This document shows positions 1 through 64,000 of a stretch of 64,000 nucleotides of DNA, piece by piece (within the stretch, counting starts at the first letter, position 1; each line of letters starts with the position of its first letter). The notes below the pieces were generated by a model that was not told the origin of the DNA, did no database searches, and saw only the letters and a list, made by a program, of their open reading frames with translations. The position numbers and the translations under genes were made by a program. This DNA is from a virus. The stretch is from positions 38,777 through 102,776 of IMG/VR virus record IMGVR_UViG_3300018984_000002, one strand, 5' to 3'.

Positions 1-88
1 TTAGTTGAAATATAACTGAGTCTTTTAATATTCCACAAGAGTCCGAAATAATAAGCATTACAATAGTATTAAACTGTTCTACTAAAAC

Positions 89-757
89 ATGAAATACACA
101 ACAATAGAACAATTAGCTGAAAAAGTAAGAGGACGATTATCTCTTATTGCGGGGCTTAATTCCAATACACCTTATCCAATAAATAATCCTACTACTCCGG
201 TATCGGCGTTATTACTACAAGATATTGCTAATGAGAAAGAGGCGTTTGTAGATATTGTTTTAAGTAATCTTTATGTTTTACCATTACGTAATACTCACAT
301 TATTATTACTGAAATAGTAGAAGCATTAATAGTAAGTGATTTAGTTAGTTTTAGTTATTGGGATAACACATCTACTATGCCAACTGATGTGACTCAAGGA
401 TTAAAGAATCACGCTTATATGTTGTTAGGTATGCTTACTGCGGGGCTTAATTTTCAAATACCTGGAGTAATGACTCAACCAGTTAGTCCTGGCATGATGC
501 CACCTAAACGTATTGAATTGATGGGTGAAATACCAGTTAGTGTGGCTCAAACTAAAGTGTTGGTAAATAATGAAACAATAGTTAGACAAAGTGTTCGTAG
601 CAAAGAAGTCACTGATTTTACTATTGATCCTAGATTTAATCGTGGTGTTGCTTTAGGAGCTAATGCCGATTATTATCATAACTACGATTCACAACTTACT
701 GACCCTAATCTAAGAGTAATTGGCGGCGAAGAAAACAGTTTAGATAAAAATGATTAA
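89..757 (+). CDS. putative head-tail adaptor / neck protein (Mu gp36/DUF1320-like)
   Basis: Y-T-x-E-x-L N-terminus and a VD-x-x-LSNLY-x-LPL segment resemble DUF1320 adaptors; first gene of a neck/tail-tube cluster. Confidence 0.5.
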   Translation: MKYTTIEQLAEKVRGRLSLIAGLNSNTPYPINNPTTPVSALLLQDIANEKEAFVDIVLSNLYVLPLRNTHIIITEIVEALIVSDLVSFSYWDNTSTMPTDVTQGLKNHAYMLLGMLTAGLNFQIPGVMTQPVSPGMMPPKRIELMGEIPVSVAQTKVLVNNETIVRQSVRSKEVTDFTIDPRFNRGVALGANADYYHNYDSQLTDPNLRVIGGEENSLDKND

Positions 758-761
758 ATAA

Positions 762-1466
762 ATGCATTATTTTATTTCGGACTTTGATACTAAGTTTGCT
801 AGAAAGCAAGGATCTAAAGATAAAATTAAACGTAAATCCAAGTTAGGAATAGGAATAGCAGCATTAGGTACAACCGCAATATTAGGAGGAGGAGCTTATT
901 TAGCTTTAAGAAATAAAAAGAAACCAACTTTACCTACTTCATCAATTGGTGTTCCTGTATCTAAACCTAAACCAATTAGATTAAGTGTTAAACAATATCC
1001 TAGAGTAACTACTAAAAAATTAAATAATAAAACAACATCTGAAATAGATAATTTAGTACAAGGAGGTTACAAACAAGTAAAAGCTGGTAGATTATTTAAC
1101 AGTGTTCAAAGGGGAATTCAAAGAAGTAAAGGTAGCAAAATAAGGCGACAGAAATCTAAGAAAATAAATTTTAGTTCAAGTCTTACTAACTTGGTATTAT
1201 TTGCCAGGAAACTAGGAAGTAAAGACAAACGCAAACGAAAAACTTATGCTGGTTTAAATCCTATTAGTATCGGAGGTGCAACTAGTTTATTAGGTTTAAC
1301 AGGAGGAATGCTGGTAGGTAATGATTTAGATAATATGGGAACTAAAATTAAAAATCCTATTGCTAAAAGTATGATAATTGGAGCTGGTCTTGCAGGAACG
1401 GCTGGTTATTTAAGTGCTAAGAACTTTAACAAGAAACTAGGTTTAACACCAAGAAGGGGATTATAA
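762..1466 (+). CDS. basic membrane-anchored virion-associated protein with two FARKxGSKDKxKRK repeats
   Basis: Repeats FARKQGSKDKIKRK and FARKLGSKDKRKRK, each followed by a Gly-rich hydrophobic segment; very Lys/Arg-rich. Confidence 0.55.
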   Translation: MHYFISDFDTKFARKQGSKDKIKRKSKLGIGIAALGTTAILGGGAYLALRNKKKPTLPTSSIGVPVSKPKPIRLSVKQYPRVTTKKLNNKTTSEIDNLVQGGYKQVKAGRLFNSVQRGIQRSKGSKIRRQKSKKINFSSSLTNLVLFARKLGSKDKRKRKTYAGLNPISIGGATSLLGLTGGMLVGNDLDNMGTKIKNPIAKSMIIGAGLAGTAGYLSAKNFNKKLGLTPRRGL

Positions 1467-1470
1467 ACAA

Positions 1471-1527
1471 ATGTACTATTTTATTTCGGACTACCGTGCA
1501 GTGGACTTTCAAGCTAATCTAATTTAA
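1471..1527 (+). CDS. 18-aa mini-ORF MYYFISDYRAVDFQANLI
   Basis: Fills the gap exactly (TAA at 1525-1527 abuts ATG 1528); its N-terminus mirrors MHYFISD of the upstream gene. Confidence 0.35.
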   Translation: MYYFISDYRAVDFQANLI

Positions 1528-2034: not shown

Positions 2035-2073
2035 TAAATAGTATAATTAATTTAAATTCGGAAAATAACTACA

Positions 2074-2661: not shown

Positions 2662-2683
2662 ATAAAAAGGAACTAAATCTGTT

Positions 2684-3487: not shown

Positions 3488-3581
3488 TAAGGATTTCAGC
3501 CTTTTAGTTTTCATAAAATAACCAGATTGCACAAATACGGGAAATCAGTTATAATAAGAGAGTAAGCCAAAACCTCTTATC

Positions 3582-4688: not shown

Positions 4689-4706
4689 ACAAACACAAAT
4701 ATAATA

Positions 4707-7945: not shown

Positions 7946-8842
7946 CTATTTTTTATTTTTATATCGTTTTACCCAAGCAATCAAATTATGCAAATAGCTT
8001 TCAGGTTCTGTTGCTTGAATTAATGTGGCTATTTCCCTCTCAGATTTATTTACATTTTCTTCGTAAATTTTAATTCGATTAGCTTTGGTATCTGTCTCAT
8101 TAGTATTTGAATCTAAAATAAATTCTGCACTTGCATCTGTTAATTTAAACTTGTAAACTGTCTCATCTAACTCAGTAATATTATTTTTAATTTGATAAAG
8201 TCTTTTAATTTTCTCAGAACCTTTCTCTTTGTCTATAGCCCAAATCAGTTCCATGTATTGTTGACAAGAAGAATGCCCTCTCATATTCTCAGTTGTAATT
8301 CTTCCTGTTATTTCGGACTTATTTAAAAAGTGTGTTATTACAATTGCTTTATTATATTTCTGAGCCAAACTTCCCAACCATTTTATAGACTCACTAGCTG
8401 CAATACTGTTTTCGTCTATACCTCCGTTAAAGCCAGCTAGACTATCTACAATGACCATTAAAGTATTTTCATCTTGAATCTCTTCTTCGATTGATTCTTT
8501 ATCACGTTTATCAAAGTAAGAGATATTGGAACACAAACTTTCAGCTGGTACATAATATCTTTCTAAATTACCACCAGCCAGCTCTACTCTTTCACAAAAT
8601 GAAAAAGCTCTGTTCTCGGTGTCTATAACCATTACATCCTTGTCATCAAAAATAGGATAATCATCTTTAGGTAAAAAACGTTGTCCATTCGTAATTGATA
8701 AACTTGCTAACAGAACAGAAAAACTTTTACCTACTCCACCATTTCCTACTAGAGCAGATACTTTTCCTACCGGAAACATACCTCCAACGTATATAGGTTG
8801 CACGACCTCATAACCCACGAATGTTCTCATGACAGTCTTCAT
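7946..8842 (-). CDS. AAA_25 / RepA-like RecA-fold ATPase
   Basis: Walker A GNGGVGKS, Walker B VIVDS, ITHFLNK and RGHSS motifs. Confidence 0.8.
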   Translation of the reverse strand: MKTVMRTFVGYEVVQPIYVGGMFPVGKVSALVGNGGVGKSFSVLLASLSITNGQRFLPKDDYPIFDDKDVMVIDTENRAFSFCERVELAGGNLERYYVPAESLCSNISYFDKRDKESIEEEIQDENTLMVIVDSLAGFNGGIDENSIAASESIKWLGSLAQKYNKAIVITHFLNKSEITGRITTENMRGHSSCQQYMELIWAIDKEKGSEKIKRLYQIKNNITELDETVYKFKLTDASAEFILDSNTNETDTKANRIKIYEENVNKSEREIATLIQATEPESYLHNLIAWVKRYKNKK

Positions 8843-10814: not shown

Positions 10815-11795
10815 TTACTCTGACTTTAATAAAAATTTATTTGAGATAACTTTAAAAGAAATTCGCGAGTATATATCGTCAGACACCAAAACCAAACCTT
10901 CGCGTTCTGTCTTACTATTCAACATACTCTTATCTTCAGCTAAAGATAAGATGTAATCTAACTTTGTTGTTTCAGGAAATACAAGGTTAGAAGATATTAC
11001 AGGTACAAATTTTAGCCCCAAACTATCTGCTACATCTTGAGCATCAACTGGATTTAAATAACCTTGAGCTTTGATGTTAAATACATTAAATACATAAAGT
11101 TCTCTTTTATCTAAACCATATTTATTTTTACGAATTCCAGGTCCAACTATTTCACCTTGAATAGCTAAATTAGTACCCTTTAAACTATTCTCTAATTTAT
11201 ATTCGTTAATGATTGCCCGAAAGTATGTATCTAACCCTGAATCGATAGAAGCTGATTTTTTAGAACAAATACCAAAGGTATCTTTATACCAGTAAGCTGT
11301 AAATGAAATACCGTCTAATTTCTCGGTAATAGTCCAACTACGGTGAATTAAATCTGGAAGCTGAGAATTTATATTTTGAATACGCTCTAAAGTAGTACTA
11401 GGAATAAACCCAGGTAAACTACCCTCTGTTTGTGCATCATAATGAGTAATTCCTAATTCAGCTGTTACATCATCACCAATCTCTAAATATCTTTCTAGTC
11501 CACCTGTAGGTAAAACTAAACCTTGAGAAATTTGTCCTCGTAATTTAATAGTCTTAATGCGAAATCCTTCTTTACCATCTGCTAATTTACGATAGCAAGA
11601 GTTTCTTAAAAATTCGTATTCAGGTCTTACTGGTAAGAAAGAATCTATCTCACAATAAATAACTATATCACCTGGCTTATATTCTCCTTTCTTAACTACA
11701 GCTTGCCAACCATCAATAATAGCTAGTTCCAAATTGTCTGCATTAAGTATCTGTTTAATTTCAGATATTTGACGAATACTTGCAAGTTTACGCAT
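10815..11795 (-). CDS. ATP-dependent RNA ligase (Rnl2-like, DRB0094 family)
   Basis: MRKLASIRQI start, ADNLELAIIDGWQ, motif I TEKLDG, IQGEIVG, EGLV and SFKVISNKFLLK. Confidence 0.9.
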   Translation of the reverse strand: MRKLASIRQISEIKQILNADNLELAIIDGWQAVVKKGEYKPGDIVIYCEIDSFLPVRPEYEFLRNSCYRKLADGKEGFRIKTIKLRGQISQGLVLPTGGLERYLEIGDDVTAELGITHYDAQTEGSLPGFIPSTTLERIQNINSQLPDLIHRSWTITEKLDGISFTAYWYKDTFGICSKKSASIDSGLDTYFRAIINEYKLENSLKGTNLAIQGEIVGPGIRKNKYGLDKRELYVFNVFNIKAQGYLNPVDAQDVADSLGLKFVPVISSNLVFPETTKLDYILSLAEDKSMLNSKTEREGLVLVSDDIYSRISFKVISNKFLLKSE

Positions 11796-17668: not shown

Positions 17669-20600
17669 ATGTCACAGTTGGCTGCTGGAATAAATGAAAT
17701 TGGAATGCCAGATCCATCTCAATTAGATGGGTTAGGAAAAGCAGTACAATCATACAATCAACAGATTATCAAACTGCAAACAACACAAGCAGCCGCACAA
17801 GCTAGTTTTTGGGGCATACAAAAAGCCACTGAAGCTGCTAGCAAAACATTTGCAAGTAGTGTACCTACCATAAAAACTTCAGCAGAAGTATTTGAAAAGC
17901 TACAAATAAGTACTGGAAACTTGGGAAAAGTACTGCAAAAAGGATTTGAGGTAGGACAGATATTAAAAGTATTTAATATCTTACAAGAAGGTGCAATCAA
18001 AATGATTGCCCAATTTGATAGAATCCCGCAAGCATTATCTTTAATGAATGCTAGTGGAGTAAGCACAGGAGTTATAGATGAATTTAGTCAAATTACTGAA
18101 GCACTTAAATTAAACGGAGCAGCCATAGACCAATTTAGTTTAAATGCAGTTGCACGTTTTAATGAATTTAATGCTGGTCTTACTAGAGTTCAAACTTTAT
18201 TTACAAAAGAAAGCGGTTTTAATGTTGAAAAATATGGAGAAGATCTACAAAAATTAGTTGATGGTCCACTTAAAAATAGTATTACAAGTATTGAAGCACT
18301 TGATGGTGCATACAACGCTATTTCGGCAGGTTTCACTAAAGCAGCAGACTCACAAGCTGTAATGACAGCAGGTTTGAAGTTAGCTAAAGCTGGTGGCGCA
18401 GATAGTGCAGACGTAATGCGATTACTAGGTGCAACACTAAACGCTTACGGTAAAAGTGCTAGTGAAGCTGGCAAGGTTGGCGCACAGCTTAACCTGATTG
18501 TACAGAAAGGTATTACTACCATCCCGGAATTAGCTGGTGGTTTCGCTGAGACTGCTACTACAGCTAAAAGTGCTGGAGTATCCCTCGAAGATTTATCAGC
18601 CGCTGTGGCAGTATTAACCACTAAAGGTAATAGTACTCCCAGTGCTTTAACTGGTATTGAATCTATTTCACGTAACATTATTGCCAAAACACCTGAAGCA
18701 ACTAAAGCATTAGAAGGATTAGTAGACGCCGCAGGTAAACCAGTTAAGTTTGATATTACCGAAATAAAAGCAGATGGTTTAGCTAAATCACTTCAGCGAT
18801 TAAATCAAGCTGTTGGTGGCAACGTTGTCAAACTAAAAGAGATTATTCCTGAATCGAGAGCTTATTCAACTGCATTAGCGTTAATGCAAAATAACTCTAA
18901 AGATTTAGCTGATATTAGTTTGCAAATGGGTCAAACAACAGCTAAAGCATTAGACGAAGTATTTGGTCAACAAATTGCACAGAAAAGTGAAAAGTTTGTG
19001 CAAATTGTAAATCGATTTGGCGAAGTAATGATTAAGTTAGGTAAAAGCCTAACACCTGCATTTGAAAGTGGACTTAAAGTATTAGACACCGTATCAGAAA
19101 CTATCGCTAAAATTCCAGATGGCGTAAAAGAAAATATTGCACAATTTTTATTAGCAGGTTTAGCATTTAAACAAACTACTGGGGCTGTTGGTGTATTCAC
19201 AGCCACACTAGTTAAAGCCTTTTTAGCATACCAAGGCTTTCGTTTAAGTACGATGGCTTTTAATGGCGAATTATTTAAACAAATAGATATTATTGGAAAA
19301 CTGTATAAAGCAAACGCAGGATTATTGCCTGTTGCACTTCAATTATTTGGTGTAGACCAACAACGTATTTTAGCTGAAAAAGATTTATTGGTTGGCGGTG
19401 AAAAAAATGTAGTAGTAACTAAAACTAGAGTACAAGCTGCAAAAGAATTAGCTACTGAAAAGAAAGATTTAGTAGGCGCATTAAAAACACTGATTGGTTT
19501 AGATCGCGAAGCATTAATTGTTTCGAGCAGCGTAGCTAAAAGTTACGACGAACAAGTAGCTGCCATACAACCACTTGTTGATTTAAATAAGCGTGTTAAA
19601 AAATCACGCGAAGAAGCAACTAAAGCTAATAGTGATTTTGTCAAAGCAGAAGAAACACTAAATAGTAAGCGGGAAAAGTTTAGTCAACTAGAAGAAGAAT
19701 TACTAAAGAAGAAAGAAGCACAAAAACAACTACAAGAAGAAGCTAGTAAATTACTACAAAGCAAAGATACTACGCCAGAAGTCCGAAAACAAGTAGTAGA
19801 AAAAGTAGAAACAATTAAAAGCGATGTTGGTAAGTCTGAAACTGAACGGTTAATTCGGCTTAAAGAAATTCAACGACAAGAAGAGTTAGTTGGGAAAGCA
19901 AAAAATAAAGTAGCGGAAACAACTAAAAAAGAAGCAGACACAGTTGCTCAAGTTACTAAAGACCAACTAGAACTAGTATCTGCTCGTCGTAATGCTGCCG
20001 CTTTAGCCCAAAAAGCTAAAGAAGCTGAAACATTAGCAGAGATTGCAAACACAGAAGCAAAAACAGCTAATGCCTTAGCAAGCAAAAGTGGTTTTAAAGA
20101 TGTTGCATTAAACACAGCTGCTGAAGAAGCAAACACAATTGCTAAAACACAAAATGCAATAGCAAGTAAATCCAGGGTTGCGGCTACAGAAGCAGATATA
20201 GCAGTCCGAAAAATAAATACAGGATTACTGCAATCAGAAGCAATCGCTGAAAATAAACTAATAGAAACAAAGTTATTAGGACTAAAAACTACTGTTGGTA
20301 ATAATGCAATTACAAAACTATTTACTACTAATATTTCGGACTTATTAAGTGACTTAAGTAAAACTGTAAGTACCACCCTTGGATTTACGACAGATAAATT
20401 TAAAGATTTCTTTGGTTTTCTAAGTCAAAAAAGTGGCAGTAAAGGATTCTTTGTTGGGCTGAAAGAAGATTTTGTATCTAACTTTAAAGAAATAAAGAAA
20501 AGTATAGAGAATCCTGTAGATAGCTTTAATAAACTAAAATCTGGAGCAATAGATAGTTTTAGTGCAATCACTGAAGCCAGTAAAAATTTAGGTACAGGTG

Positions 20601-23600
20601 GTAGTGGTTTCTTTAGTGGTTTACTTACTAGTGCTACTGGATTTTTTGAGACTATTAAAAAAGGCACTAAAGATGTTGCGTTAGGGTTAGCCGATATTGC
20701 TGTAGGACTAAAAGATGGAGCAGTAGGAGCACTTAAGTCTGTAAAAGAAATGGAATTTTCTTTTGGAGGCTTAAAGAAAGCAATGAGTGGAGGATTAAGT
20801 GGTGTAGTTGGCTTGCTTACCACTGGGTTATCTGCGGCTATTGCAGGGGCAAGTACTGCCTTTGGCGTATTAGCTACTGCCGCTAAATTTGCATGGGCTG
20901 CTGTAAGTGGTCCAATGGCTCCATTGTTATTAGTGTTAGGAGCTGTGACAGCTGGAGTAGCGTTACTTTATGACAAATTCTTTGGTTTCGGTAAAGCAGC
21001 AGATAATTTAAATAAAGAATTTGAAAATATCAGCAAAGAAACATCTAAGTCTTTAGAAGAAGTAGATAAAACTTTTGAGGCAACAGCTAAAGCCGCTGAT
21101 GAAACTTTGCTTAGTTCTTTTAAAAAACTAGGTGAAGAAGCTCCTAAATCAGTCTTAGGTATTGAAGATTCTATTAAGCCTCTCAAGAATGAAATAGAAA
21201 TACAAAAAGGAGCTTTTGGTAGTCTTTTAGATATGATTAAAAATGGTTTTAAAGACCCACTTAAAGCTATTAAAGATTTTATATTAAACATTACAGGACT
21301 AGGCAAAGCTATAGATGTAGTGAGTAGTGCTAGTAATAATCTAGGTGGATTTTTCAATAAAATAACAGACTTTATTAAAAAAATACCTTTAATTGGGGAT
21401 GCTGTTGAATTACTTGAAAATGTCGGTAAAACTATTGGTGGTTTGGTAGATGGTGTCGGCAAATTCTTTGGGGGTATCAAAGAAGCTTATGAATTAGACC
21501 AGATAGTAGAACCTGTTAGTAAACTGCGTAAAGCCGGAGAAGATTTAGCTACTGATCAATTACGTGCAAGTAAAGCTATTGGAGCATACAACAAAGGATT
21601 ATTCCAAACCAAAGAACTAAATGAGTTAGTACTAAAAGGAAATAAATTAAGCACTGAACAAGTAGCTATTAAAACAGCTTTACTTGAAAAAGAATCAGCT
21701 GCAATGCAAAGGCTAGTAGATAGAGCTAATGCAGAAACAGGTGCTAACAACAAACGTATTGAAGAAGCTCAAAAGTTAGCTGATCAATATAAAAAAGTAA
21801 CTAAAGATGCTAGTGGAAACGAAGTAGAAGATTTAAAAAATCAGGATATAAGGCGTGTAAAACTACTCGAAGAAATAGAGATCATTGAAGCTAAAAACAA
21901 AAAGCTACAAGACTCTGTTTCTCAAGCAAAAGAAGAACTTCAACTAGTAATTAAATTACAACAAGAGCGAGAAAGACTGCAAGAACGAGTCCGAAATAAT
22001 AAGGGAGATGATTTAGATCCTACCAAAGGTGACGTAGCAGGTGAGAACTACATCAAAAACTCTCTAAATCGGGGCTTACAGGCTAGCACAGAAGAGTTGG
22101 ATAATTACTCAAAGAAAGTACAAGCAGTATTAGATGGCACGGGTAAGTACCTAGAAACCACCACAGACAAGACGGGTAATAAGATTACTACCCTGACAAA
22201 GATCAAGCTCACAGACTTAGAAGGAGCAACAGACAAGCTTGACGAGAAAGTCATGGGGGCTGTTGGAGCTGTAGACGCACTGTTTGAACAAGGATATATT
22301 GACAGTGACAAAGCTGCTGAAAAGATTACAGAGACATTAGAGAAGACGGTTACCGGATCTACTGGTAAGATACAAAAGCTTAAAGAACTGTTAGACCCAC
22401 AAACTCAAATCGACTTAATTAATCAAGTAGTTGACTATCAACAAAAAGCAAGTCAAAGTCAAATCGGCTTAAAAACCAAAGAAATAGAAAAACTGAAATC
22501 ATTAGACGAAGCACGTTTAGCTAACTCTAGTGAAGTAGCAAAAAATATACGTAAGATTGAAGCTGAACAAATGGAGATTCAGCGCACTACGCTTGAAAAA
22601 CAAATAGCGGCTTTAGTAAATTCAAAGCAAGGTAGTCCACAAAAGATCAAAGAATTGACAGCAGACCTTGAAAAACTAAAGTCAGATCAAAAAGGTCAAC
22701 AAATAAGAAATAGTGTTAGTGACGCTAACCAAGAAAACAATGATAGAAAACAACAGTTAGATAAAGACTTAGAACTACAAAAAACGTATGAAGCAGCAAA
22801 AATAGGCAGTGTAGAAGCAACTAGTAAAAAGATTCGCCAGATAGAAGAAGAACAATTAGGTATTCAAAGAAAGAATCTACAAAATGAAATAGACGTATTA
22901 ACAGCAGCTGGAAGTGATCCTAAAAAAATAGCCGAACTACAAAAGAGTATGGAAAAACTCAATGTGGAATCTCGTGCTAAACAAATGAAAGATAAGATAG
23001 ATGATGCTACAAAAGAAACAGAAGCCACAAGAGAAAAATTAGGTAATCAACTAGAACTAGAACGTACATTCCAACAAGCTCGTATTGGAGATAATGTTGA
23101 AACTACCAAAAAGATAAATCAGTTAGAACTACAACAACTCCAAGCTTCTAAATTAGCACTAGAAGCTAAAGTTAAAATAATGAAACAAACTGGCGTTGAT
23201 CCTGAAGAGATTAAAAAAGTAGAACAACAAATAACTTTAATTACAGCACAAGAAAGTGCTAAACGTATTACTAACATTCAGTCTGAAATGGCTGCAAGAG
23301 TAGCCAAAGTAAAACAAGCTACAGAAAAACAAATTAGCTTAGACGAATTAGCAAGACTTAAAGGTGAAAAGTCATTCAAAGATGCTAGTGATAATGCAAT
23401 AAAATTACGTCAGGAAACCAATGCAAAAGAACAACAACTGTTATTAGAACAAATTAACCGTACTAAGTCTGCTGGTGGAAATACAGACGAATTACAAAAA
23501 CAGTTAATTGATAAACAAATAGAGTATCAAAAAATACTTACTGAAAAAATACAAAAAGAAGTAGAACGCCGTAAACAGATACTTAGTAATAGTGTTAATG

Positions 23601-40574: not shown

Positions 40575-40608
40575 GTCCGAAACTAAGCACCCTTATATTA
40601 TTTCGGAC
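40575..40608. repeat. inverted pair of GTCCGAAA motifs (dyad element 1)
   Basis: GTCCGAAA at 40575 and TTTCGGAC at 40601, intergenic. Confidence 0.85.
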
Positions 40609-40944: not shown

Positions 40945-43900
40945 CTAAAACACTTCTAGTATTTCATTGCAAATCACTTTAATAGTCTCTTCAGTATTAT
41001 CTACATTGAATTTTCCTGTAATAGCAATTGCCTCTTTTAATAGTTCTGTATTTTGATCTAGTATTTTACTAAAAATTAAACCGTCAACAATAGTCCCCTT
41101 GTTATCTTCAAACTTGCAACACATATAATTTTTACCACTCTTAGATACGCGAAATTCTTTTTCTAAAATAGTACAAGCAACTGTTATATTATTTTGCTTG
41201 ACTTGATTGCTAGTAGGAAAATACTCGTATTGTGTCAAAAAACTAACAGGATTATTGCTAATGAAATATCCAATTGTTTCATACTCATAACGTAGTAAAT
41301 CTATCTCGTTATACTCCTCATCAATATTTACTTTTATATCTTCAAATAAAACCTCTAGTTTATTTTTTCGGACATCTATTGATTTTCGCTTCCGTTTAAT
41401 AATCTGTAGGTTTTCTTCTTCATTAAGCAAGAGTTGTTTTAGATCTACTTGTAAAATCTGCAACTCTTTAATTGCTTTTTCTCTAGAAGCAATATGCTTT
41501 TTAAGTACTGAAATATTTTCCACTAGTTCTTTTCTATTTAAATTAATAGTATCAAAACTTCCAGAAAGTATTAATGCTTTTAAACCGCGACTGTCTATAT
41601 TAGTTCTTTCACAAAAATCCACTAAATCTTTGAATTTAGTTATCTCTCTTGTGCTAATTATTGATTCAATAGTAGATTTACCCAAGCTCTTTATAGATTT
41701 AAGTCCAAAGAATATAGCATTACTTTCGGGGTCACTAGTAAAGTTATAATCAGACTTATTTATATCTGGTGGTAAAATTTTAATTCCTAATTGTCTTGCG
41801 GCATTTAAATATTTAGAAACTTTTACATTATCATTTTGTCTAGACAATAATGCAGCCATAAATTCACATGGATAATGTGCTTTTAAATAAGCACACTGAT
41901 ATGCTATTAAAGAGTAAGCAGCAGAATGACTTTTATTAAAACCATAACTACCAAAAGTTTCTATTTTGTCAAAGAATCTCTCAACCTTTATTTGTGGATA
42001 CGAGTTTTGTGCAGCACCATTAACAAACTCTACTCGTTCTTGAGCCATCTTGTGTACTAACTTTTTTCCAACCACCTTACGTAGCTGGTCAGCTCTGCTA
42101 GGGTTAAAACCAGCAATAACTTGAGAAGCCTTCATAACACTTTCTTGATACACAAGAATCCCATAAGTATCGCTAAGGACTTCCTTCAATGCATCGAAGT
42201 CATACTCTACTGGCTCCCTGCCATGCTTACGAGCAATGTAACGTGGAATCATACCAGAATCTAATGCTCCTGGTCTATAAAGTGCGTTAGCAACACTTAA
42301 GTCATCTATAGAACTAGGAGCTAGCTGACGCAGTATATCTTGCATTCCAGGACTCTCAAACTGAAATACACCCTCTGTTTTACCTGTACTAAATACTTTG
42401 TAGGTTAGAGAATCATTTAAAGGTATTTGGTAAAGATCTAAATGATTACCAATATTTTTTAAAGAGTCCGAAATAATAGATAAATTGTTTAAGCCTAAAA
42501 AATCCATCTTTAAAAAACCAAGCTTCTCAATACTATTCATCTCGTATTGAGTACAAACTTGATTATCTTTAGTAAGCATTAATGGGCAATAGTTTTCAAT
42601 ATCTACATCACCAATTACAACTCCAGCTGCATGAACACCAGTACCCCTAATACATCCTTCTAATCCAATAGCTAAATCTATCCATTCCTTAAATTGTTTA
42701 TCTGAAATATATTTTTGGTAAAATTCTTTAGACGGCGATTCTGGAGAAATCATTTTACTTAATTTCTCAGGTTTCCCTCTAGTGACTGGAATCATATTAC
42801 TAGCATTCAGGGAATCTGAATAAGGTATCCCAAGAGTAGTTGCAACACTACGAATTGCAGCTTTACTTGTTAGGGTGTTGTAAGTAACAATCTGACTTAC
42901 CCTTTTCTTGCCATATTTTTCGGTCACATAATCAATAACTTTTTGTCTTCCATCAACATCGAAATCAACATCAATATCAGGCATTGATGCTCTTTCTGGA
43001 TTAAGAAAACGCTCAAAAGATAATCCATAATGTATTGGATCAATCTTAGTAATACCAGTAACATAAGCAACTAAACTTCCACCAACACTACCACGACCTG
43101 GACCAACTCTTACACCGTTAGATTCAGCCCACTTAATATAATCAATTACTACTAAAAAATAACTAGCAAAACCCATTTTGTTAATTATTTCTAATTCATA
43201 ATTGACTCTTTCTAGATATTCTTCATTAGGGTTATCAATAAAACGTTTATTTAAACCATCAAATGTTAATTCAGATAAATATTGTTCTGGTGTTTTATCT
43301 GATAAAGGAAACTCTGGTGATGTTGGTGGTCTGAATAATTCATAGTGTTCTACTTTATTGGCTACTTCCACTGTGTTATTAATAGCATCACTAATAACTT
43401 GTTCTGGTAATGTATTTTGAAATCTATTTTTTAGTTCAGTATTAGTACCAAAAAATAGGTCTTTGTCATAACTAAATTTCTGATTCTCTAAATCGACTAG
43501 TTTTTTGCCGTACTTAATAGCATATAAAACATTATGCATTTTATAATGTTCTGCCGTTAAGTAATGAGTATCAGGAGTAATAATACATTTGATATTATAT
43601 TTACCTGCAAAAGCAACTAAGACATTGTTGAGTCCGAAATAAATATCTTGATTGTCGTGATACTGCAACTCAATATAATAATCATCTTGAAAAACCGTAA
43701 GATATTCTAGTAGTATCTGTTCAGCTAATTCTATTTCATCAAAGATTATCAGTTGTGGGATCAAAGAACCAATACAACCAGTTGTAACTATTAAACCTTC
43801 ATGAAACTCTTTTAATTTTTGTAGTGTTATTAGTGGATAAAGTTTACCTTTATTATTTGCAGCTTTTTTATTTTCTAACTCAGACCAAGTAGTAAGTTTA

Positions 43901-44232
43901 GATAAATTTTGGTAGCCTACTAAATTTTTAGCTAAAACAATCTGATGAAATCTATTTCCAGGCTTGTAGTCTCCTGTTAATTCAGTGGTAATTTTATCTT
44001 TTAGTATTTCGGAATATGGATGTTCCAAATACATTTCATTGCCAATAATTGGCTTAATACCAAATTTCTTACAAGCTTCATACAAATCAATACTACCCAT
44101 CATTGTTCCGTGATCAGTAAGAGCAAAAGCAGATTGACCTAATGAATGTGCTTTTTCTACTAGGTCAACAACTTTCGAGCTTCCATCACTGTAATGAGAG
44201 TGAGTATGCAAACAAACGAAATTGTCTGACAT
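40945..44232 (-). CDS. dnaE: DNA polymerase III alpha subunit (family C), unsplit
   Basis: PHP motif HTHSHYS, GRGSVGGS, catalytic PDIDVDF, GVHAAG, KMDFLGL, YGFNKSHS and a C-terminal OB fold. Confidence 0.95.
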   Translation of the reverse strand: MSDNFVCLHTHSHYSDGSSKVVDLVEKAHSLGQSAFALTDHGTMMGSIDLYEACKKFGIKPIIGNEMYLEHPYSEILKDKITTELTGDYKPGNRFHQIVLAKNLVGYQNLSKLTTWSELENKKAANNKGKLYPLITLQKLKEFHEGLIVTTGCIGSLIPQLIIFDEIELAEQILLEYLTVFQDDYYIELQYHDNQDIYFGLNNVLVAFAGKYNIKCIITPDTHYLTAEHYKMHNVLYAIKYGKKLVDLENQKFSYDKDLFFGTNTELKNRFQNTLPEQVISDAINNTVEVANKVEHYELFRPPTSPEFPLSDKTPEQYLSELTFDGLNKRFIDNPNEEYLERVNYELEIINKMGFASYFLVVIDYIKWAESNGVRVGPGRGSVGGSLVAYVTGITKIDPIHYGLSFERFLNPERASMPDIDVDFDVDGRQKVIDYVTEKYGKKRVSQIVTYNTLTSKAAIRSVATTLGIPYSDSLNASNMIPVTRGKPEKLSKMISPESPSKEFYQKYISDKQFKEWIDLAIGLEGCIRGTGVHAAGVVIGDVDIENYCPLMLTKDNQVCTQYEMNSIEKLGFLKMDFLGLNNLSIISDSLKNIGNHLDLYQIPLNDSLTYKVFSTGKTEGVFQFESPGMQDILRQLAPSSIDDLSVANALYRPGALDSGMIPRYIARKHGREPVEYDFDALKEVLSDTYGILVYQESVMKASQVIAGFNPSRADQLRKVVGKKLVHKMAQERVEFVNGAAQNSYPQIKVERFFDKIETFGSYGFNKSHSAAYSLIAYQCAYLKAHYPCEFMAALLSRQNDNVKVSKYLNAARQLGIKILPPDINKSDYNFTSDPESNAIFFGLKSIKSLGKSTIESIISTREITKFKDLVDFCERTNIDSRGLKALILSGSFDTINLNRKELVENISVLKKHIASREKAIKELQILQVDLKQLLLNEEENLQIIKRKRKSIDVRKNKLEVLFEDIKVNIDEEYNEIDLLRYEYETIGYFISNNPVSFLTQYEYFPTSNQVKQNNITVACTILEKEFRVSKSGKNYMCCKFEDNKGTIVDGLIFSKILDQNTELLKEAIAITGKFNVDNTEETIKVICNEILEVF

Positions 44233-44242: not shown

Positions 44243-45943
44243 TTATACTGGTTTTAGTTGTTCTTCGATATAGTCACAAAAAGTGTTTCCACTATCATCC
44301 CTGACAGTGTACATATGTTTTCCTTCTTTTATTTGTACACTTAAAACAGTTACCACAATATCCTCAATCATTACTTGACTGTTGATCGGATATTTTGGAG
44401 GTGTAACCAATAACTGTTTTTCTAACTTAGTTGCACTATCTAACAGTGCAAATACCCGTTTCTTTTCTTCGTCTGTCCAACCTTTAATTAACTCAATAAA
44501 CTCTTCTTTTGTTTTAGTATTCTTTACTTTTTCAGCCATCTTAATATCAATCTGTTTGCGTTCTTCGGCTTTACGTACTTCTTCTTGTTCAGCTTCAAGA
44601 TACGCAATTAACCAACTTTCTCCACTTGCTGGTAAAGAATAAATAAATTTTCTGTCATGTATTCTTCTAGCTATACCTTCTGTTTCACACATATTATTAA
44701 GACGCTTAATTAGGTCTGTGCGAGGAACAGCTAGTATGTCTACTAACTCAGTCAAAGCGTACCCATATACGTCCTCATCTTCGTCAGTTGCATTTGCTTT
44801 CCAGATATTGTATTGCTCCATTAAAAGACGCATAATACTGTTTTGCAATTGCACATTTTCTGGCGATAATGTCTTTTCTTTTTCTACCTCAAATGTCCAA
44901 AAACTAGCCTCACCTTCTGTGTATCTTAATTCAAGTTCTTCGGGAGTTCCGTCACGAGGAATAGTGAATAAATCTACTATTCCAGCTTTCTTGCTCGGAT
45001 GCAATTTAAACAAACCGTCATTAGCTCTAACTAAAGCATTTGTGCCAGCAACACCTTTAATCATTCCACTTTTACTGTCTGTGGAATCCATTTTAGTACT
45101 GTGGTGCAACACTAAAACAGTTACATTTTTGCTGTGCGCTAAGTCTTGCCATTCGTATAATACTGTGGCTAACTCCGGGGAATATTCTGTTAATCCACTC
45201 TTACGTATACTTGCTCCTAGAGAGTCTACCACTAATACATCAGCTTGGCTATCTTCAAGTAACTTAAAAATTGTGTTTTTATCTACCACTAAATCAAGAT
45301 GCTTTGCAACTACTAAACTTTCACTGTCGAGTAATTCTTCAAAAAGAGCTGGTTCTTTTGCTTCTAGATACTGTAAACCATTATTGTAAACACGCTTGTA
45401 GGTTGAAATTACATTTTCTTCATTTTGTAAAAACAACACTTTACTTTTACTGGTTGTGCGATTAAGAAAAGGTTCACCTTGAATTAATCTAACAATAAGG
45501 TTAGTGACAAACAAACTCTTGCCTGTTTTTGGTGCGCCAACAATTAGTAAAAGAATGTTCTTTCTGATTAACCCTTGTACTAAATAATAGTCTTTGTATC
45601 CTAAAGATAATTCTCGCAGTTGACGCAAAGTATAAGTCTCAGTCTCTTTTATTTCGGACGAATATACCTCTACTAGTTTTTGTACATCTTGTTTGTCATT
45701 AACAAAAATACGTAACCAATTAACTAAATCGGTTTTTAAACTAGCTGCTTTAAATACATTAGTTGTGTTTCTAATTACAAGTAACTTTTGTCTAGTTACA
45801 TCAACTAAATGTTGATAAAATACATCATCTAATTCTTCTTTAGTTAATGTGTCCGGATTATCATCTATCCAAGATTCCATTAAAGCCAAGCGAATATTAG
45901 TATCTGGCTCATTACTTAGTGTAGTTAGTAGCTGACTTAACAT
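44243..45943 (-). CDS. replicative helicase, AAA_25/RepA-like
   Basis: Walker A GAPKTGKS, Walker B VVDS, LHHSTK, VAGTNAL; between primase and polymerase. Confidence 0.8.
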   Translation of the reverse strand: MLSQLLTTLSNEPDTNIRLALMESWIDDNPDTLTKEELDDVFYQHLVDVTRQKLLVIRNTTNVFKAASLKTDLVNWLRIFVNDKQDVQKLVEVYSSEIKETETYTLRQLRELSLGYKDYYLVQGLIRKNILLLIVGAPKTGKSLFVTNLIVRLIQGEPFLNRTTSKSKVLFLQNEENVISTYKRVYNNGLQYLEAKEPALFEELLDSESLVVAKHLDLVVDKNTIFKLLEDSQADVLVVDSLGASIRKSGLTEYSPELATVLYEWQDLAHSKNVTVLVLHHSTKMDSTDSKSGMIKGVAGTNALVRANDGLFKLHPSKKAGIVDLFTIPRDGTPEELELRYTEGEASFWTFEVEKEKTLSPENVQLQNSIMRLLMEQYNIWKANATDEDEDVYGYALTELVDILAVPRTDLIKRLNNMCETEGIARRIHDRKFIYSLPASGESWLIAYLEAEQEEVRKAEERKQIDIKMAEKVKNTKTKEEFIELIKGWTDEEKKRVFALLDSATKLEKQLLVTPPKYPINSQVMIEDIVVTVLSVQIKEGKHMYTVRDDSGNTFCDYIEEQLKPV

Positions 45944-46770
45944 AACAGATGTTTTATTTCAATATTTTTATTAATCAAATCTGCAACATCCTCTTTCTCA
46001 TTAGAATAAGGAAGTTTCTTTACACTTAAAACATTACAAGAAATACCGCAAGTCCAAGCAATAGTTTGAACGAATTTCATTTTTCTAATACCTGTTTCAT
46101 CATTATCAGGTATTAATAAAAGCCCTGATATTCTGCTTGATAATTTCTGAAACTGTGGTTTTAAATACTTTTCGTCCCAACCAAATCCTGGAGGAGTAAC
46201 TGATAATAAACCTAAATGTTTAGTAAAGGTAATTGCACATTTTTCTCCTTCTAATAAATACAACAGTGGTTTATTGGTTTGATTCAATAAACCTACATTA
46301 AAAAGAGGAAAATCTAAACTACTACCATACTTACGTTTACCTTCAAATATATAACTTGGAATAAACTTTTTCTTACTACCATCAAAGTAATCTATTCTTT
46401 CTACTCGATGTGTGTCCGAATAATAGTAATGTGTTATTCTAGCTTGTTTGTTGTCTCTAGTATCGATCCATGACTTATAGTTTGGTTGATAATTAGTAAG
46501 TATTTGTGGTACTTCTGTGCCTATAAGTTTTGTAGGACTTATATTGTATGCCTGTGGCGTTTTAGTAATAGTATTTGGAATATACACTAGTCCTAGTGCT
46601 TTTCTTATCATGTCAGAACTACAGCCTCCTGACCAGCACTTATAAGGCTTTGTAGGAAGGCTTATGTTCACCTTGATGGTTTTATTGCAACTAGGACATT
46701 GGTATATCTCTTGACTATTACCGATTCTCTGAAGAGGTTTGCCTAGATATCGGGTAATGTCAAACGGCAT
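45937..46770 (-). CDS. DNA primase (Zn finger + TOPRIM)
   Basis: CPSC...CWSGGC zinc finger, LLEGEKC, IPDNDETG. Confidence 0.85.
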   Translation of the reverse strand: MPFDITRYLGKPLQRIGNSQEIYQCPSCNKTIKVNISLPTKPYKCWSGGCSSDMIRKALGLVYIPNTITKTPQAYNISPTKLIGTEVPQILTNYQPNYKSWIDTRDNKQARITHYYYSDTHRVERIDYFDGSKKKFIPSYIFEGKRKYGSSLDFPLFNVGLLNQTNKPLLYLLEGEKCAITFTKHLGLLSVTPPGFGWDEKYLKPQFQKLSSRISGLLLIPDNDETGIRKMKFVQTIAWTCGISCNVLSVKKLPYSNEKEDVADLINKNIEIKHLLC

Positions 46771-47238: not shown

Positions 47239-47811
47239 TTAAATATATTCATTATTTGTTCCTAACCAATTTAGTGCAACGTTTAAGTCTTCTTGATCTG
47301 CCAAATTATAAACCTTAATACCATAAGCATTTGCTATTCTAATCGCTTGTCCTGTACCTCCTGTTTTAGAAGTTGTTTCTGTTTTAGCACCATCTGGTGT
47401 CCAGCATAAAACAAAATTAGAATAACAATTTAAATTAAGACCAAGTATCTGAAATACATTACGGGTATGTAATTTGCGAATGTATTTTGATAAACCATTC
47501 CAGTTAGGATGATATTTGCTAGCTAGTAATTCAGCTTCTTGTAGGGAATTTAAACTATAATTACTTTCTCTGTCTAAAATAGAACCGTCTTGCCTTTGTA
47601 TTCTTTGCACACATTTATCAATATAAAATATCTGTTTTACCCCTAGTACAGAATCACAACCTCTTTCAAAAGCTGTATCAGCACCTCTAGCTCCACCACT
47701 ACGTAAAACACAATCTTTGTTTGCCAGCTTTATGGCTAATTTTTCCATTACTTCACAAATAAGTAAGGGAGTTTTTCGACTCCCTATACCTGCATATATT
47801 TTGTTGTACAT
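47239..47811 (-). CDS. standalone SLOG-fold (DprA/YspA-like) protein
   Basis: YAGIGSRKTP, LRSGGARGADTAFE, RNVFQILG, GGTGQAIRIA. Confidence 0.75.
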   Translation of the reverse strand: MYNKIYAGIGSRKTPLLICEVMEKLAIKLANKDCVLRSGGARGADTAFERGCDSVLGVKQIFYIDKCVQRIQRQDGSILDRESNYSLNSLQEAELLASKYHPNWNGLSKYIRKLHTRNVFQILGLNLNCYSNFVLCWTPDGAKTETTSKTGGTGQAIRIANAYGIKVYNLADQEDLNVALNWLGTNNEYI

Positions 47812-52256: not shown

Positions 52257-52300
52257 GTCCGAAATAATAGCACAACCCTGAATCCCTTATTATTTCGGAC
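52257..52300. repeat. inverted pair of GTCCGAAA motifs (dyad element 2)
   Basis: GTCCGAAATAAT at 52257 and its complement ATTATTTCGGAC ending at 52300, intergenic. Confidence 0.85.
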
Positions 52301-60003: not shown

Positions 60004-61046
60004 TTTGTTTTATTTAATGTAATAGGTTCAATACTTACATCTGAAGTAGGCTTAGAAGTATGAGTCCGAAATAATAGTTGTATGTATGTGTCTGATCTTG
60101 TTTCATCTAGTGTCCCTTTTATTACGGTAACGCCACCTACAGGTATCCACCCCTTATATTTCGGACTATTTAATTCGGTTTGCAAATCTAACAAAGAATA
60201 TTCAATTACGTACTTATATTTATCTTCACTCATTAGTTTTAAACTCTAAAACAATATTAAAATTGTGCAACTTAAAACAAACTTTTGGATGCCTGCATAC
60301 TACTTGATTTATTTTAAATTCATACTTCACTAAAAGATTAGCTCTGTAGTAATCTGTTTTATTGTTTTTAATTAAATTAATATAAATAGTATTTTTAATA
60401 ATATGTGTATCTAAAATTAGATAGTATTTACTGAGTTTAGTAACTACTAAATCATGTGTCATTTTATTTTATACAAAATCTATAAAGTCAAGTTTAGTAA
60501 CTAAACCTTTTTCACTATCCACACTTATTTTTCCTTGTGCTACTAACTGTGTTAAAACTCTGCATATTACTACTTTTCTATGATCTTTTGGCAATATATT
60601 ATAGAACTCGAATTTTTCTATTTCTTCAAAAGATATGGTAGATCCTACTGGTATATTCGGCGATACCAACCACCCCATGATTTCTTGTATATGCATTTCA
60701 AGATTTATCTGTTGTTGGTAATTTATTATTCCAAGTATCTTGTGTAGTATCAGCCATTGGTTTTAAGTAACCCCCTGCATCTATTTTTAATGAGTCTATA
60801 GCAAATAATTTAAAATTATTACCTAAATTAAAACATATATCACGAAATGATTTTGGGTACGCCGTTACAAATATTTGTCTACGATCACCTAACAATCTAA
60901 ATTCTTCATCGTTAGTAGTCAACAAAACAATGCCATTGATTTCTCCAATGGCTCTTATTTTAATTGCTTTATTGTTTATGCAAAGATCTTGTTTACGATA
61001 AAATGCATTTTCTATGTGCTGATTTCCTATTACTTCTCCTAATTTA

Positions 61047-61514
61047 TTAACCAACAATACCAACATCTTTTAGGTAACTAATAAACATAGCGATACTATC
61101 ACTTTCATGATCAGCATCAAATGAGATATTGGGAAAATATTTTAATACACCTAATTTTACTGAATTTTTATCTGCTTTACCATTCCCAGTTACTTTTTGT
61201 TTTATCTCACTAGGCTTGTACGTAACCACAACTGATATATTATTTATGGCAGTTAACAACAGTAAAATGGCAATTCCTTGTTGTACTTTATTTCCTGTTT
61301 CATGTCCTACTTTGTATACAGGTTTTTCGTATACCAGAGTTGTGATATTATAAGTATTAATTAAAGATTGTATCTTATTATATATTTGTTGCAATTGTCC
61401 TGGAAAGTTTGAACCAGTTGTAACAATTGTCCCACTTACAACAACTGATTTAGTGTTTAAGTCCCCTACACAATAACCTATATTTCGGTATCCAGGATCA
61501 ATTGCTAATAACAT
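61047..61514 (-). CDS. ruvC: Holliday junction resolvase RuvC
   Basis: LAIDPG, LVYEKP, IKQKVTGNGKADK and HESDSIA motifs. Confidence 0.9.
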   Translation of the reverse strand: MLLAIDPGYRNIGYCVGDLNTKSVVVSGTIVTTGSNFPGQLQQIYNKIQSLINTYNITTLVYEKPVYKVGHETGNKVQQGIAILLLLTAINNISVVVTYKPSEIKQKVTGNGKADKNSVKLGVLKYFPNISFDADHESDSIAMFISYLKDVGIVG

Positions 61515-62099
61515 ACATAAAGCATTAAATTAATACATACTATCCTATGCTATCTAATGTCTTAAAAATAGAAAGTCCAAACCCAAATACAGAAAACTCA
61601 AATAGCCATTTATCTTGTTTTATTTCAATATTTAGTACAGTCGGGAAATATAAGTGTAAAAAAGAATAATCTGTTTCGCCGTCTCCTAAACTTGCATCTA
61701 AACTAGGTAAAACTAAACTAAAACAAATAAAAGTTTTAGTAGCTATAAAGCTAAGTACTAAAAAAGTAAATATATTAGACATCTTGATTAAGTATATACC
61801 TAAGTAATTCAACAACCACTATAATGCTAGTTTCTTTTAAGTCTGTTGTATGAAAACAATATTTCCAGTAATCCGTTTTTGTTTTTAACCAAACAGAATG
61901 AGCTATAGACAAATTAATTTTTGCTAAGGGTTTCCCTAGATAGCTAACCTCTAAGTCTTCTGTGGATATCTTGTTTGGTTGAAACTTAAAAGAAAAATTA
62001 GCAGTATCTTGATTTAACTTTTCCAGATACTGCTTTATGTTACCTACTAATTTATTGTAATCAGACTGCATTTATTTTTCAAATACTCGCTATCTTATT

Positions 62100-62255
62100 T
62101 TAGCCATCTTTTTTATTCCATTGTTGAATCGTTTCGTTTGATCTATTGGTATCTTCTTTTGCCCTATCATCATTTTGTTTTTGAAGTTCTTGTTTATCTA
62201 CTTCTGTGTCGTATTCAGGGCGAGAATTGTCGTTTTGATTTTCTGTATTTGGCAT
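62100..62255 (-). CDS. 51-aa charged/acidic protein (not in ORF track)
   Basis: MPNTENQNDNSRPEYDTEVDKQELQKQNDD... Confidence 0.45.
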   Translation of the reverse strand: MPNTENQNDNSRPEYDTEVDKQELQKQNDDRAKEDTNRSNETIQQWNKKDG

Positions 62256-62918
62256 TCTAGTAAACCGCTATACTAAATGCTTTTATTTTAGTATACTTAC
62301 ATTTCAATTAAGTACTTCTTTAATACCTTATATTCGGACTCTGGTATTACTTCTACATTATCGAGTCTAACTGTACGAGAATCTTCCTCAAAAATATAAC
62401 CATCCCCAAAAGGATTTTCTTCACCTGTACCGAGAAGGTTTGATGCTATTTGGTTTGCTATTTTCCATTCGTCTAATTCATCATCAATAGTTTTAACACA
62501 TAACTTACTGTACTCCGTCTCACAGTCAATAATAGTTAAGTCAATAAATAAATATTTCATATATTAAAAAAGCGAGACAATACAGTATATTCAGACTCAG
62601 CTATATTTCGGATATAACCTACATTTGTTAGTCTATAGTCATCCTCAAAAGCAAAATGTCCAAATAACTTAGTGCTTTTTTCATCTTTATCTTTAGATAA
62701 ATAAGTACTAGCTATCTCATTGGCTTTTGTTTGTATATCTTCATTTTCATTTAATGAGACAGCAGACCAATCGCTATACTCAAATTTACCATCGTAGATA
62801 ACTATCTGAACTAAATAGTATTTCATATTTGCTTTTACCAAAGAAAAGAAATCCCCTGGTTAGTCCAAGGGATTCCTAATTTACTATGTCACTTTAGTAG
62901 ATGTCTAGGTGACCGGGA

Positions 62919-63527
62919 TTATGCATCCATAACAGGCAAATCAAGAGGAGCAGTATTATCTAGTACTCCTTCTCCACTAATTCCAGGTGTTGCCGGAACT
63001 ACTACCTCTGACCCAACAGGTTCACCTAATACAGGGGTAGAAGGCTCCACTGATGGTGCTACAGGCTCAGAAGGTACTACAGGGACGACTGGAGTAGTAG
63101 GCTCAGTAGGCTCGACTACAGCAGGAGCAGCATCTTCAGGAGTAGGAACAGCGGGTTCAGTTACTGGCGGTACTACAGGTGCTTCAGGAGCAGCTTTAGG
63201 TAGCAGATCTTCTAATTGTGCTTGTAGTGCGTCCAGACGTGCAATGTCCTGGTCTGTGACGGCTTCAGCTTGAAGGTCTGTAATCTGCTTCTGCAAACTC
63301 TCTACTTGAGCTTTAGCATCGGCATCTTCTTGTACTTCTGCTTCAGCCACTTTGTTAACCATGTTCTCTAACAAAGTGAGAGTATTACGTAGATCTTTAG
63401 GCATTTGAGTTATGTTTCCTTTGAGGTTTATGTGTTTGATTATAGTATGCAACCTGGATGTGTACTGGTCTTCCTCTGCTTTTAACAATTTAGCTAGAGA
63501 CATCAAGAACTCGTACATCTCCGTCAC
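62919..63527 (-). CDS. coiled-coil protein with Pro/Glu/Val-rich acidic tail
   Basis: Heptad region followed by PEAPVVPPVTEP-type repeats; visibly more GC-rich than neighbours. Confidence 0.6.
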   Translation of the reverse strand: MTEMYEFLMSLAKLLKAEEDQYTSRLHTIIKHINLKGNITQMPKDLRNTLTLLENMVNKVAEAEVQEDADAKAQVESLQKQITDLQAEAVTDQDIARLDALQAQLEDLLPKAAPEAPVVPPVTEPAVPTPEDAAPAVVEPTEPTTPVVPVVPSEPVAPSVEPSTPVLGEPVGSEVVVPATPGISGEGVLDNTAPLDLPVMDA

Positions 63528-64000
63528 TATCCCATCTGATTTAATTGTGCTTCGATAATAGTAGCATAATCTTGGTTATCCCAGTACTCTTCCTCTGGAC
63601 TAAATTTAATTGCAGTACATAGTTTCTTTTCTACAGAACGACAAAGATTAAACATATAATCTCCTAGCATATTGTATGCAGAACCAGTCTTTTGAGACTG
63701 AACTGAATAATCTTCAGGATTAAAAGTATCGTAATGATGAATAATATCCCAACAAAAATGTTCTATATTTCTGATATCAATACACAAGTTGTACAATTCA
63801 CAACTTGGAATTGTATGAAAAACTACAAATTCTTGTGCATTTTTGAATTGACTATTTAAAACAATTCTACGTTGATTAAATTCAGCAACCAAAGAGTCCG
63901 AAATAATATACTTATTGTTTTGTAGTTTACACCACAAGTTAGCCCCTAAATCGTTAATGCCAGGATTTCGTAATTCTTTGAGAAGTCTTAAATCCTCTTT

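Follow-up and report, generated by a model that had tools for sequence, protein, structure and literature searches.

The primase of bacteriophage T7, gp4, starts primers at sites of the form 5'-(G/T)(G/T)GTC-3' (PMC12839067; PMC6136900). As described in a study from 2026, each site has GTC preceded by 2 nt of 5' flank and followed by an A/T-rich 3' flank, with a purine-rich dinucleotide at positions 9-10 of the flank, and active sites lie 1-6 kb apart (PMC12839067), and strong flank effects were also reported in an earlier study (PMC6136900). Here we report on a stretch of 64,000 nucleotides (the window), bases 38777-102776 of the 127,110-bp viral contig of an uncultured soil-crust phage (IMG/VR record IMGVR_UViG_3300018984_000002), and on an asymmetric eight-base word, GTCCGAAA, that recurs throughout it on both strands. 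The word is a selected, DNA-level, cis-acting signal, and our data suggest, with a probability that we put at roughly 0.4, that it is the priming signal of a T7 gp4-like primase-helicase of the phage, kept at Okazaki-scale intervals on each strand.

Several other recurrent words invite comparison. As with Chi in lambdoid phages (PMC3784561; PMC12315714), an octamer lies far above chance in a phage and is apparently read directionally; Chi, however, is the host's word, and in Chi-rich phages, which have no recombination modules, 20/23 and 32/32 sites lie in the biased orientation or cluster near one end, whereas the word studied here is balanced between the strands, evenly spread, equipped with a long flank and accompanied by recombination genes of the phage's own. 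With the DNA uptake sequences (DUS) of the Neisseriaceae, which form dialects, and the uptake signal sequences (USS) of the Pasteurellaceae it shares an invariant core with a weaker flank, a density of about one per kb in both orientations, presence in all reading frames, an origin by substitution, inverted pairs between genes and lineage 'dialects'. Those words, in contrast, are found in competent bacteria and are read by the uptake machinery, while the present word is carried by a phage and regularly spaced on each strand separately; among 185,579 species genomes searched none was found to carry the word about once per kb, as the chromosome of a competent host would. HIP1 (GCGATCGC; PMC4390886; PMC5861425) is likewise a hyper-abundant octamer in coding DNA with quasi-regular spacing, but it is palindromic, host-wide and tied to methyltransferases, and the phage word is asymmetric, private to its lineage and enriched at gene boundaries. 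An earlier note on this DNA, made from the letters alone, had stated that the motif matched none of the known ones, and indeed the word is not HIP1, DUS/USS, Chi or parS as these are known. Finally, the stoperators of cluster A mycobacteriophages are also asymmetric and lineage-specific and number dozens of copies over the genome, but they are intergenic and co-oriented with transcription, unlike the phage word (56 of 85 copies inside genes).

Copy number, consensus and gene context

The contig (G000 in our set) has a G+C content of 33%, is rated 99% complete and is 94% coding. Its DNA is present in biocrust and soil metagenome sequencing runs, and there was no RNA dataset among the runs that contain it. 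The exact copies of GTCCGAAA in the window are as follows.

Plus strand (n=23), first half: 41, 3599, 4989, 7622, 9017, 11832, 15590, 19781, 20204, 21989, 23662, 25040
Plus strand, second half: 30095, 34962, 36253, 40575, 42466, 43632, 50230, 52257, 55290, 60064, 63896
Minus strand (n=21), first half: 775, 1484, 5213, 8311, 9996, 12728, 14687, 17612, 20334, 26118, 29361
Minus strand, second half: 34654, 38272, 40601, 41366, 45652, 49752, 50439, 52293, 58068, 60159

All 44 copies of the earlier note (23 plus and 21 minus) were thus found again at identical coordinates, and its rough chance expectation of about one is close to the 0.84 given by dinucleotide-preserving shuffles, where the largest count in any shuffle was 5. 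The whole contig carries 85 copies (38 plus, 47 minus) against 1.5-2.2 expected under Markov models of orders 1-3, and the word is the top over-represented 8-mer of the genome. Moreover, the core is almost never degenerate, since 85 of the 92 occurrences of GTCCGA extend to the full word. Within called genes there are 56 copies, compared to a mean of 4.0 (maximum 10) when synonymous codons are shuffled within each gene and 1.3 when the codon order is shuffled; the corresponding numbers in a relative, G002 (see below), are 69 copies versus 7.1 and 2.1. Markov models and codon shuffles fall far short, and the excess therefore does not follow from composition, codon usage or protein sequence. The earlier note had argued, from the mixed reading frames and both orientations of the coding copies (confirmed here), that protein sequence is no explanation, and had named a codon-corrected model as the check; that model has now been run and fails to account for the copy number. 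Its proposal of a cis-acting code consequently stands as far as a selected signal is concerned, whereas its list of possible functions was too broad. A literature search for both octamers returned primer noise alone.

Alignment of the copies revealed a longer consensus, i.e. not-G, GTCCGAAA and YAAWAAGG, in which position -1 is almost never G and mostly A, and the first four to five positions of the 3' flank have no G. This flank extension, which had been noticed earlier, is real and persists in copies deep within genes, at distances above 60 nt from the nearest boundary, and so belongs to the selected unit, which is ≈17 nt long and asymmetric.

Some 29 copies are intergenic or straddle a gene end, at a density roughly eight-fold that of coding DNA. 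The copies inside called genes are oriented with the gene in 30 cases and against it in 26, and a 48-kb block with all genes on the minus strand holds 15 plus- and 20 minus-strand copies. Approximately 40 copies lie deep inside genes, in both orientations and at an at least 20-fold excess, e.g. in the two following genes.

19781..25047: six copies in the gene for the 2519-amino-acid tape measure protein (19781+, 20204+, 20334-, 21989+, 23662+, 25040+), read in coordinate order as VRK, VRK, ISD, VRN, SEN, VRN
41366..43639: three copies in the DnaE polymerase gene (41366-, 42466+, 43632+)

Close pairs on opposite strands are arranged tail-to-tail, with the flanks pointing inwards, in 20 cases (8 in G000 and 12 in G002) versus none head-to-head. 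Three such pairs in the window are given here.

40575..40608: plus and minus copies, tail-to-tail, 18 nt between the cores, between two minus-strand genes; the transcript can fold (-13.4 kcal/mol, z = -2.9)
52257..52300: tail-to-tail, 28 nt between the cores, between two minus-strand genes; fold of -17.6 kcal/mol (z = -3.3)
60064..60166: wide tail-to-tail pair, 87 nt between the cores

The arms of these dyads match through the word alone, without extra compensating bases and without co-variation, and canonical terminator hairpins often adjoin them. We considered the dyads as canonical terminators themselves and rejected this, since they can fold but are missed by a simple terminator scan and their arms do not co-vary.

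A separate observation concerns five or six small genes of the structural block that start with M-x-(T/L/Y)-(L/Y)-F-I-S-D (window 762-785 and 1471-1494; genome 22593, 22991, 33180 and 37263), as do four genes in G002. This start looks like an N-terminal tag at the protein level that fits the word by chance, because one gene keeps the peptide without the DNA word.

Spacing on each strand and turnover among relatives

Carriers of the word were sought across viral contigs with its 17-mer form and two further ones were found. The relatives that bear on the turnover of the word are listed below; among GenBank phages there were no close relatives, the best DnaE matches being 35-37% identical.

G003: same-species fragment, 96% nucleotide identity, 27.5 kb, 18 copies
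G002: diverged relative, 74 reciprocal-best proteins with a mean identity of 52%, 111 kb, 101 copies (52:49 between the strands)
L184: third lineage, primase 48% identical, 7.6 kb, 6 copies
G001: distant relative, DnaE 49% identical and only 19 shared proteins, 148 kb, 3 copies (control word 6)

The copies are evenly spaced when each strand is taken separately. Specifically, the coefficients of variation (CV) of the gaps on the two strands are 0.61 and 0.61 in G000 and 0.59 and 0.60 in G002, which is more even than uniform placement (p ≤ 0.002 in both genomes) and also more even than a null with the observed numbers of boundary-near and deep sites (p ≤ 0.00025). Copies on the same strand are never closer than 275-503 bp, with mean gaps of 2.2-3.3 kb. 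When the strand labels were shuffled among single sites the mean per-strand CV rose from 0.61 to 0.79 in G000 (p = 0.0004) and from 0.59 to 0.77 in G002 (p = 0.0003); label shuffling destroys the evenness, and the regularity therefore belongs to each orientation separately. Single sites also alternate between the strands, in 43 of 68 steps in G000 (p = 0.016) and in 53 of 76 steps in G002 (p = 0.0005).

Three kinds of explanation are disfavoured by this regularity, namely a duplex binding site that is blind to orientation, any drive by mutation or uptake, and a motor that moves in one direction only, such as the terminase. A process in which one strand, or one direction, is read at a time is consistent with it. 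Taken together, even spacing and strand alternation favour replication priming over packaging, nucleoid organisation and ordinary transcription.

Comparison with the relatives indicates how the copies come and go. Between G000 and G003 17 of 18 sites are identical, where about five differences are expected at 96% identity. For the orthologous genes of G000 and G002, 7 coding copies are shared while 25 are found only in G000 and 32 only in G002, and in the orthologue alignments the genome lacking a given copy has a similar peptide and no indel. Positions thus differ without indels, and the word is therefore made and lost by substitution, i.e. its density is kept and not its position. An origin by insertion of elements of the repetitive extragenic palindrome (REP) or miniature inverted-repeat transposable element (MITE) type was rejected, as the orthologue alignments are without insertions and the conserved unit is only ≈17 nt.

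The word follows the lineage, in that G002 and L184, with primases of 48% identity or more, carry it and G001 does not. The latter genome (44% G+C) has 65 copies of HIP1, nearly all intragenic, with a mean gap of 2.2 kb and a CV of 0.78, and two HIP1 sites are found in L185, a 3.2-kb contig with the next-closest primase (P0006); G000 has no HIP1 copy and G002 has one. The wider primase and DnaE kin are probably cyanophages. We also note that GATC is about two-fold under-represented in G000 (198 versus 393 expected), G002 and G003 but not in G001, and a GATC-directed restriction system of the host may be the cause.

A primase as the candidate reader

The gene cassette of interest lies on the minus strand of the window.

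45937..46770, minus strand: candidate reader, a primase of 277 amino acids in which a zinc ribbon with four cysteines at the N-terminus is followed by a TOPRIM catalytic domain (EGEK and DNDE motifs)
44243..45943, minus strand: AAA_25 (RepA/DnaB-like) helicase, translationally coupled to the primase, its start overlapping the primase stop by 7 nt
40945..44232, minus strand: DnaE-type DNA polymerase III alpha subunit; the gene follows that of the helicase directly

For the primase gene no match was found in Pfam or PHROG, and a profile search against PDB sequences as well as single-sequence searches were also empty. Alignments of its homologues have four invariant cysteines and the EGEK/DxD motifs. 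An AlphaFold model built from six homologues (pLDDT 80.6) was compared with the PDB and gave as best match the T7 gp4 primase fragment (1nui), followed by Twinkle and then bacterial DnaG, at a probability of 1.00. It was only this fold search that identified the 277-amino-acid protein, as a T7 gp4-like primase with a zinc-binding domain and a TOPRIM domain. The order primase-helicase is repeated in L183, L184, L189, L191 and L193.

The phage word is laid out much like the T7 sites described above, a resemblance and not a proof: it has a weak 2-nt 5' preference, starts likewise with GTC and continues into an A/T-rich 3' flank that ends in GG; it occurs on both strands at kb-scale intervals, and the primase is gp4-like by fold. 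There are also differences. The core has 8 invariant bases compared to 3-5 in T7, the GG sits at flank positions 12-13, three further out than positions 9-10 of T7, and the primase is a protein separate from the helicase. Moreover, T7 sites arise largely by chance, whereas the phage word is ≈40-fold enriched and evenly spaced.

The reading that we prefer, i.e. a priming signal, builds on the excess of the word, its consensus, its turnover by substitution, the per-strand spacing, the fold of the primase and the related words in kin cassettes, all established here; that the primase is the reader, and where the primer starts, we infer. The primase, together with the adjacent AAA_25 helicase, would start RNA primers at the word on the template strand. 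The template bases 5'-A GT C-3' would hold the initiating bases, such that the primer would begin pppA-C-U with the C cryptic as in T7; CGAAA-YAAWA would then be the A/T-rich binding stretch and the terminal GG a distal contact for the zinc-binding domain. Chance gives one or two such words per genome, and therefore selection must write them in if the primase needs a long word. Selection would place the word every 2-3 kb per strand so that either strand can be the lagging-strand template, cheaply in intergenic gaps and at gene ends, and in long genes through synonymous and conservative codon changes. The earlier note had put the motif forward as a candidate for an undescribed system, which is possible, while a known class, the priming sites of T7-type primases, gives a workable explanation.

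A profile search revealed a large family of stand-alone primases, few of which are on long contigs. Related words were found in the following three.

L191 (4.9 kb): primase 32% identical to that of the window; GTCTGAAG, 5 copies versus 0.19 expected
L193 (20.8 kb of a 127.7-kb contig): primase 34% identical to that of the window; CGCCGA, 25 versus 3.5, often as CGCCGAA
G411 (86 kb, the record from which L194 comes): a full-length primase relative with 30% identity to P0012; GTTAGAAA, 25 plus and 26 minus versus 3 for the control

The case of L191 is weak, because one of its GTCTGAAG copies is the MSEE start of a gene. For GTTAGAAA in G411, A is favoured at position -1, the regularity by strand is weak (p = 0.03 on shuffling the labels), and three close pairs are tail-to-tail with none head-to-head. 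Three of the words have the frame A-GT-NN-GAA in common, and the zinc ribbons of the primases differ between the word groups. Searching the L191, L193 and L194 loci with tblastn, we found the helicase of this phage in all three and its primase in L191 and L193; a few other genes match as well. Repeats of other kinds were seen in other phages with TOPRIM primases: L247 has a 150-bp cluster (11623-11773) of nine AGTTTGGA units, which is iteron-like, and in L207 seven of eight AGATGTCAATA sites share a strand, which is promoter-like.

With respect to other functions, the phage has genes for a recombinase-like ATPase, an exonuclease, SSB and a DprA-like protein, and it encodes Rha, BRO-N, Ant-like and HTH proteins as well as several homing-type endonucleases. 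The DprA-like recombination-mediator gene (window 47239-47811, minus strand; phrog_768, E = 1.7e-53) is 54% identical to the one of G001. Three paralogous AAA_25 helicase-like genes are present, at window 7946-8842 and 44243-45943 and at genome 14794-15675, all on the minus strand. Three genes appear interrupted by homing-type endonucleases, namely an AAA_24 recombinase-like gene with a LAGLIDADG_3 insert, a ribonucleotide reductase in two halves around an endonuclease open reading frame (ORF), and a phrog_1735 protein in two halves around a LAGLIDADG-type ORF; the positions are as follows.

Window 52609-54633, minus strand: endonuclease-interrupted gene
Genome 106237-109957: endonuclease-interrupted gene
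Genome 123309-126366: endonuclease-interrupted gene

No tRNA genes were found in the phage. Nor was a phage RNA polymerase detected, either as a Pfam or PHROG match in the scanned proteins or as a DxDGD-type motif in the large proteins, a search that was non-exhaustive.

Priming weighed against other explanations

A number of points weigh against priming. Known DnaG- and T7-type primases need 3-5 nt, and an invariant core of 8 nt would be without precedent. The variant GACCGAAA, which breaks the GTC, occurs 6 times versus 1.1-1.3 expected in G000 and G002, often with an intact flank. Three further features would not be expected from priming alone, namely that approximately half of the copies (52%) are found no more than 60 nt from a gene boundary, that the dyads are exclusively tail-to-tail, and that 7 copies downstream of orthologous genes are shared between G000 and G002 versus 2.1 expected. 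They hint at an added punctuation role, and from the dyads the word may have a second use, either as punctuation or as a bidirectional start. As to the kin cassettes, the association between word and primase is partly a matter of construction, because the relatives were found through the primase. L183 has no word in 5 kb, most of the 51 loci from distant TOPRIM-primase phages have no word of comparable strength, and G001 has a primase homologue (30% identity) but no word except HIP1, though it is also without a helicase homologue.

The main rival to priming is a Chi-like signal. A helicase-nuclease, of the host RecBCD/AddAB type or a phage enzyme, would read the word directionally while moving in from any broken DNA end, and the word would either turn it from degradation to repair or label the phage DNA as self. 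In a permuted or concatemeric genome both orientations would have to be present throughout. Regularity that is specific for orientation on balanced strands, and density kept rather than position, would suit such a signal, for which the Chi-rich phages are a documented precedent (PMC3784561, PMC12315714). We find it rather unlikely, as the one-orientation bias and end clustering of those phages differ from the 38:47 and 52:49 strand ratios and the even spread seen here, and they have no recombination modules, whereas this phage carries the recombination genes listed above. Furthermore, the selected word is ≈17 nt with a conserved flank compared to 5-8 nt for Chi, it is enriched in no bacterial genome searched, and no RecBCD/AddAB-like gene was seen in the phage. 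In each feature open to comparison, the documented Chi-rich phages are unlike this one. Ranked after this, and unlikely, is a private 'self' code of the lineage, read directionally by a phage-encoded DNA-tracking machine other than the primase. Such a code could possibly spare word-bearing DNA during degradation of host DNA or license recombination-dependent replication, and the lineage dialects (GTCCGAAA, GTTAGAAA and GTCTGAAG) would co-evolve with the reader. That the word is instead the binding site of a phage regulator, acting as transcriptional punctuation (stoperator-like silencing, or dyads as terminators or RNA-stabilising hairpins) with the intragenic copies being secondary, is in our view quite unlikely. 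The intergenic density and boundary bias speak for a regulator, as do the dyads, which separate genes of the same direction, are able to fold (z about -3) and recur above chance downstream of orthologues; the phage also encodes the Rha, BRO-N, Ant-like and HTH proteins mentioned above, and the stoperators set a precedent for asymmetric sites. It is at odds with the ≈40 deep intragenic copies in both orientations, with an orientation that is independent of transcription (30 versus 26, and 15 versus 20 in the all-minus block) and with the even spacing on each strand, which is unexpected for a regulator site; the dyad arms, moreover, lack co-variation beyond the word, canonical terminators often adjoin them and the terminator scan misses them.

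We regard as improbable that the host imposed the word, by a mutational or repair drive or as an uptake-type signal in the manner of HIP1 or DUS/USS, and that the phage accumulated it by replicating there. The anatomy does recall those words (an invariant core with a weaker flank, about one copy per 1.2-1.5 kb, all reading frames, origin by substitution, inverted pairs between genes), and G001 and L185 carry the cyanobacterial HIP1, so such phages can mirror the word of a host. Only 9-16% of the genes use a Shine-Dalgarno sequence, a low share that is in keeping with a Bacteroidota or a cyanobacterial host. However, the 17-mer gave 25 scattered matches in the 185,579 species genomes, always as single copies and at chance level, two of which are one homologous clostridial gene where the inverted pair is there by coincidence; cyanobacteria and Bacilli were covered by this global scan alone. 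With the 16-mer no multi-copy bacterial or phage-like contig was among the metagenome matches listed, and in 401 evenly sampled Bacteroidota genomes the 11-mer does not rise above background. Nor would a drive produce even spacing on each strand or alternation between the strands; there is no C5 methyltransferase (PF00145) gene in the phage and no clear very-short-patch-like (repair-type) depletion among the words with one mismatch, and HIP1 in G001 behaves otherwise, being almost all intragenic with weak regularity. The host searches weaken this explanation without closing it: the earlier note had allowed for a host that carries the word densely, and none was found among the bacterial genomes searched. 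One metagenome contig of 53% G+C (L170; OBCO01000527.1, 1-5938) has five bare GTCCGAAA cores in 5.9 kb, without the phage flank. Most improbable of all are sites for a phage nicking enzyme that leaves site-specific single-strand interruptions as in T5 or Pseudomonas phage tf. An asymmetric, strand-specific word and several encoded homing-type endonucleases would agree with this, but about 40-50 nicks per strand would fragment the packaged DNA and no candidate nickase is tied to the lineage; in known nicked genomes the nicks are few or confined to one strand.

Whatever the reader, the test of spacing on each strand tells strand-specific functions apart from drives and simple binding sites. If the word is indeed a priming signal, this group of phages has tied its replication to a long template word and its genome carries its own code for Okazaki starts on both strands, with a visible cost in codon and amino-acid choice. 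It would then be a clear natural example of the specificity of a replication enzyme shaping a whole genome, and would allow zinc-finger variants to be matched with DNA words from one lineage to the next.

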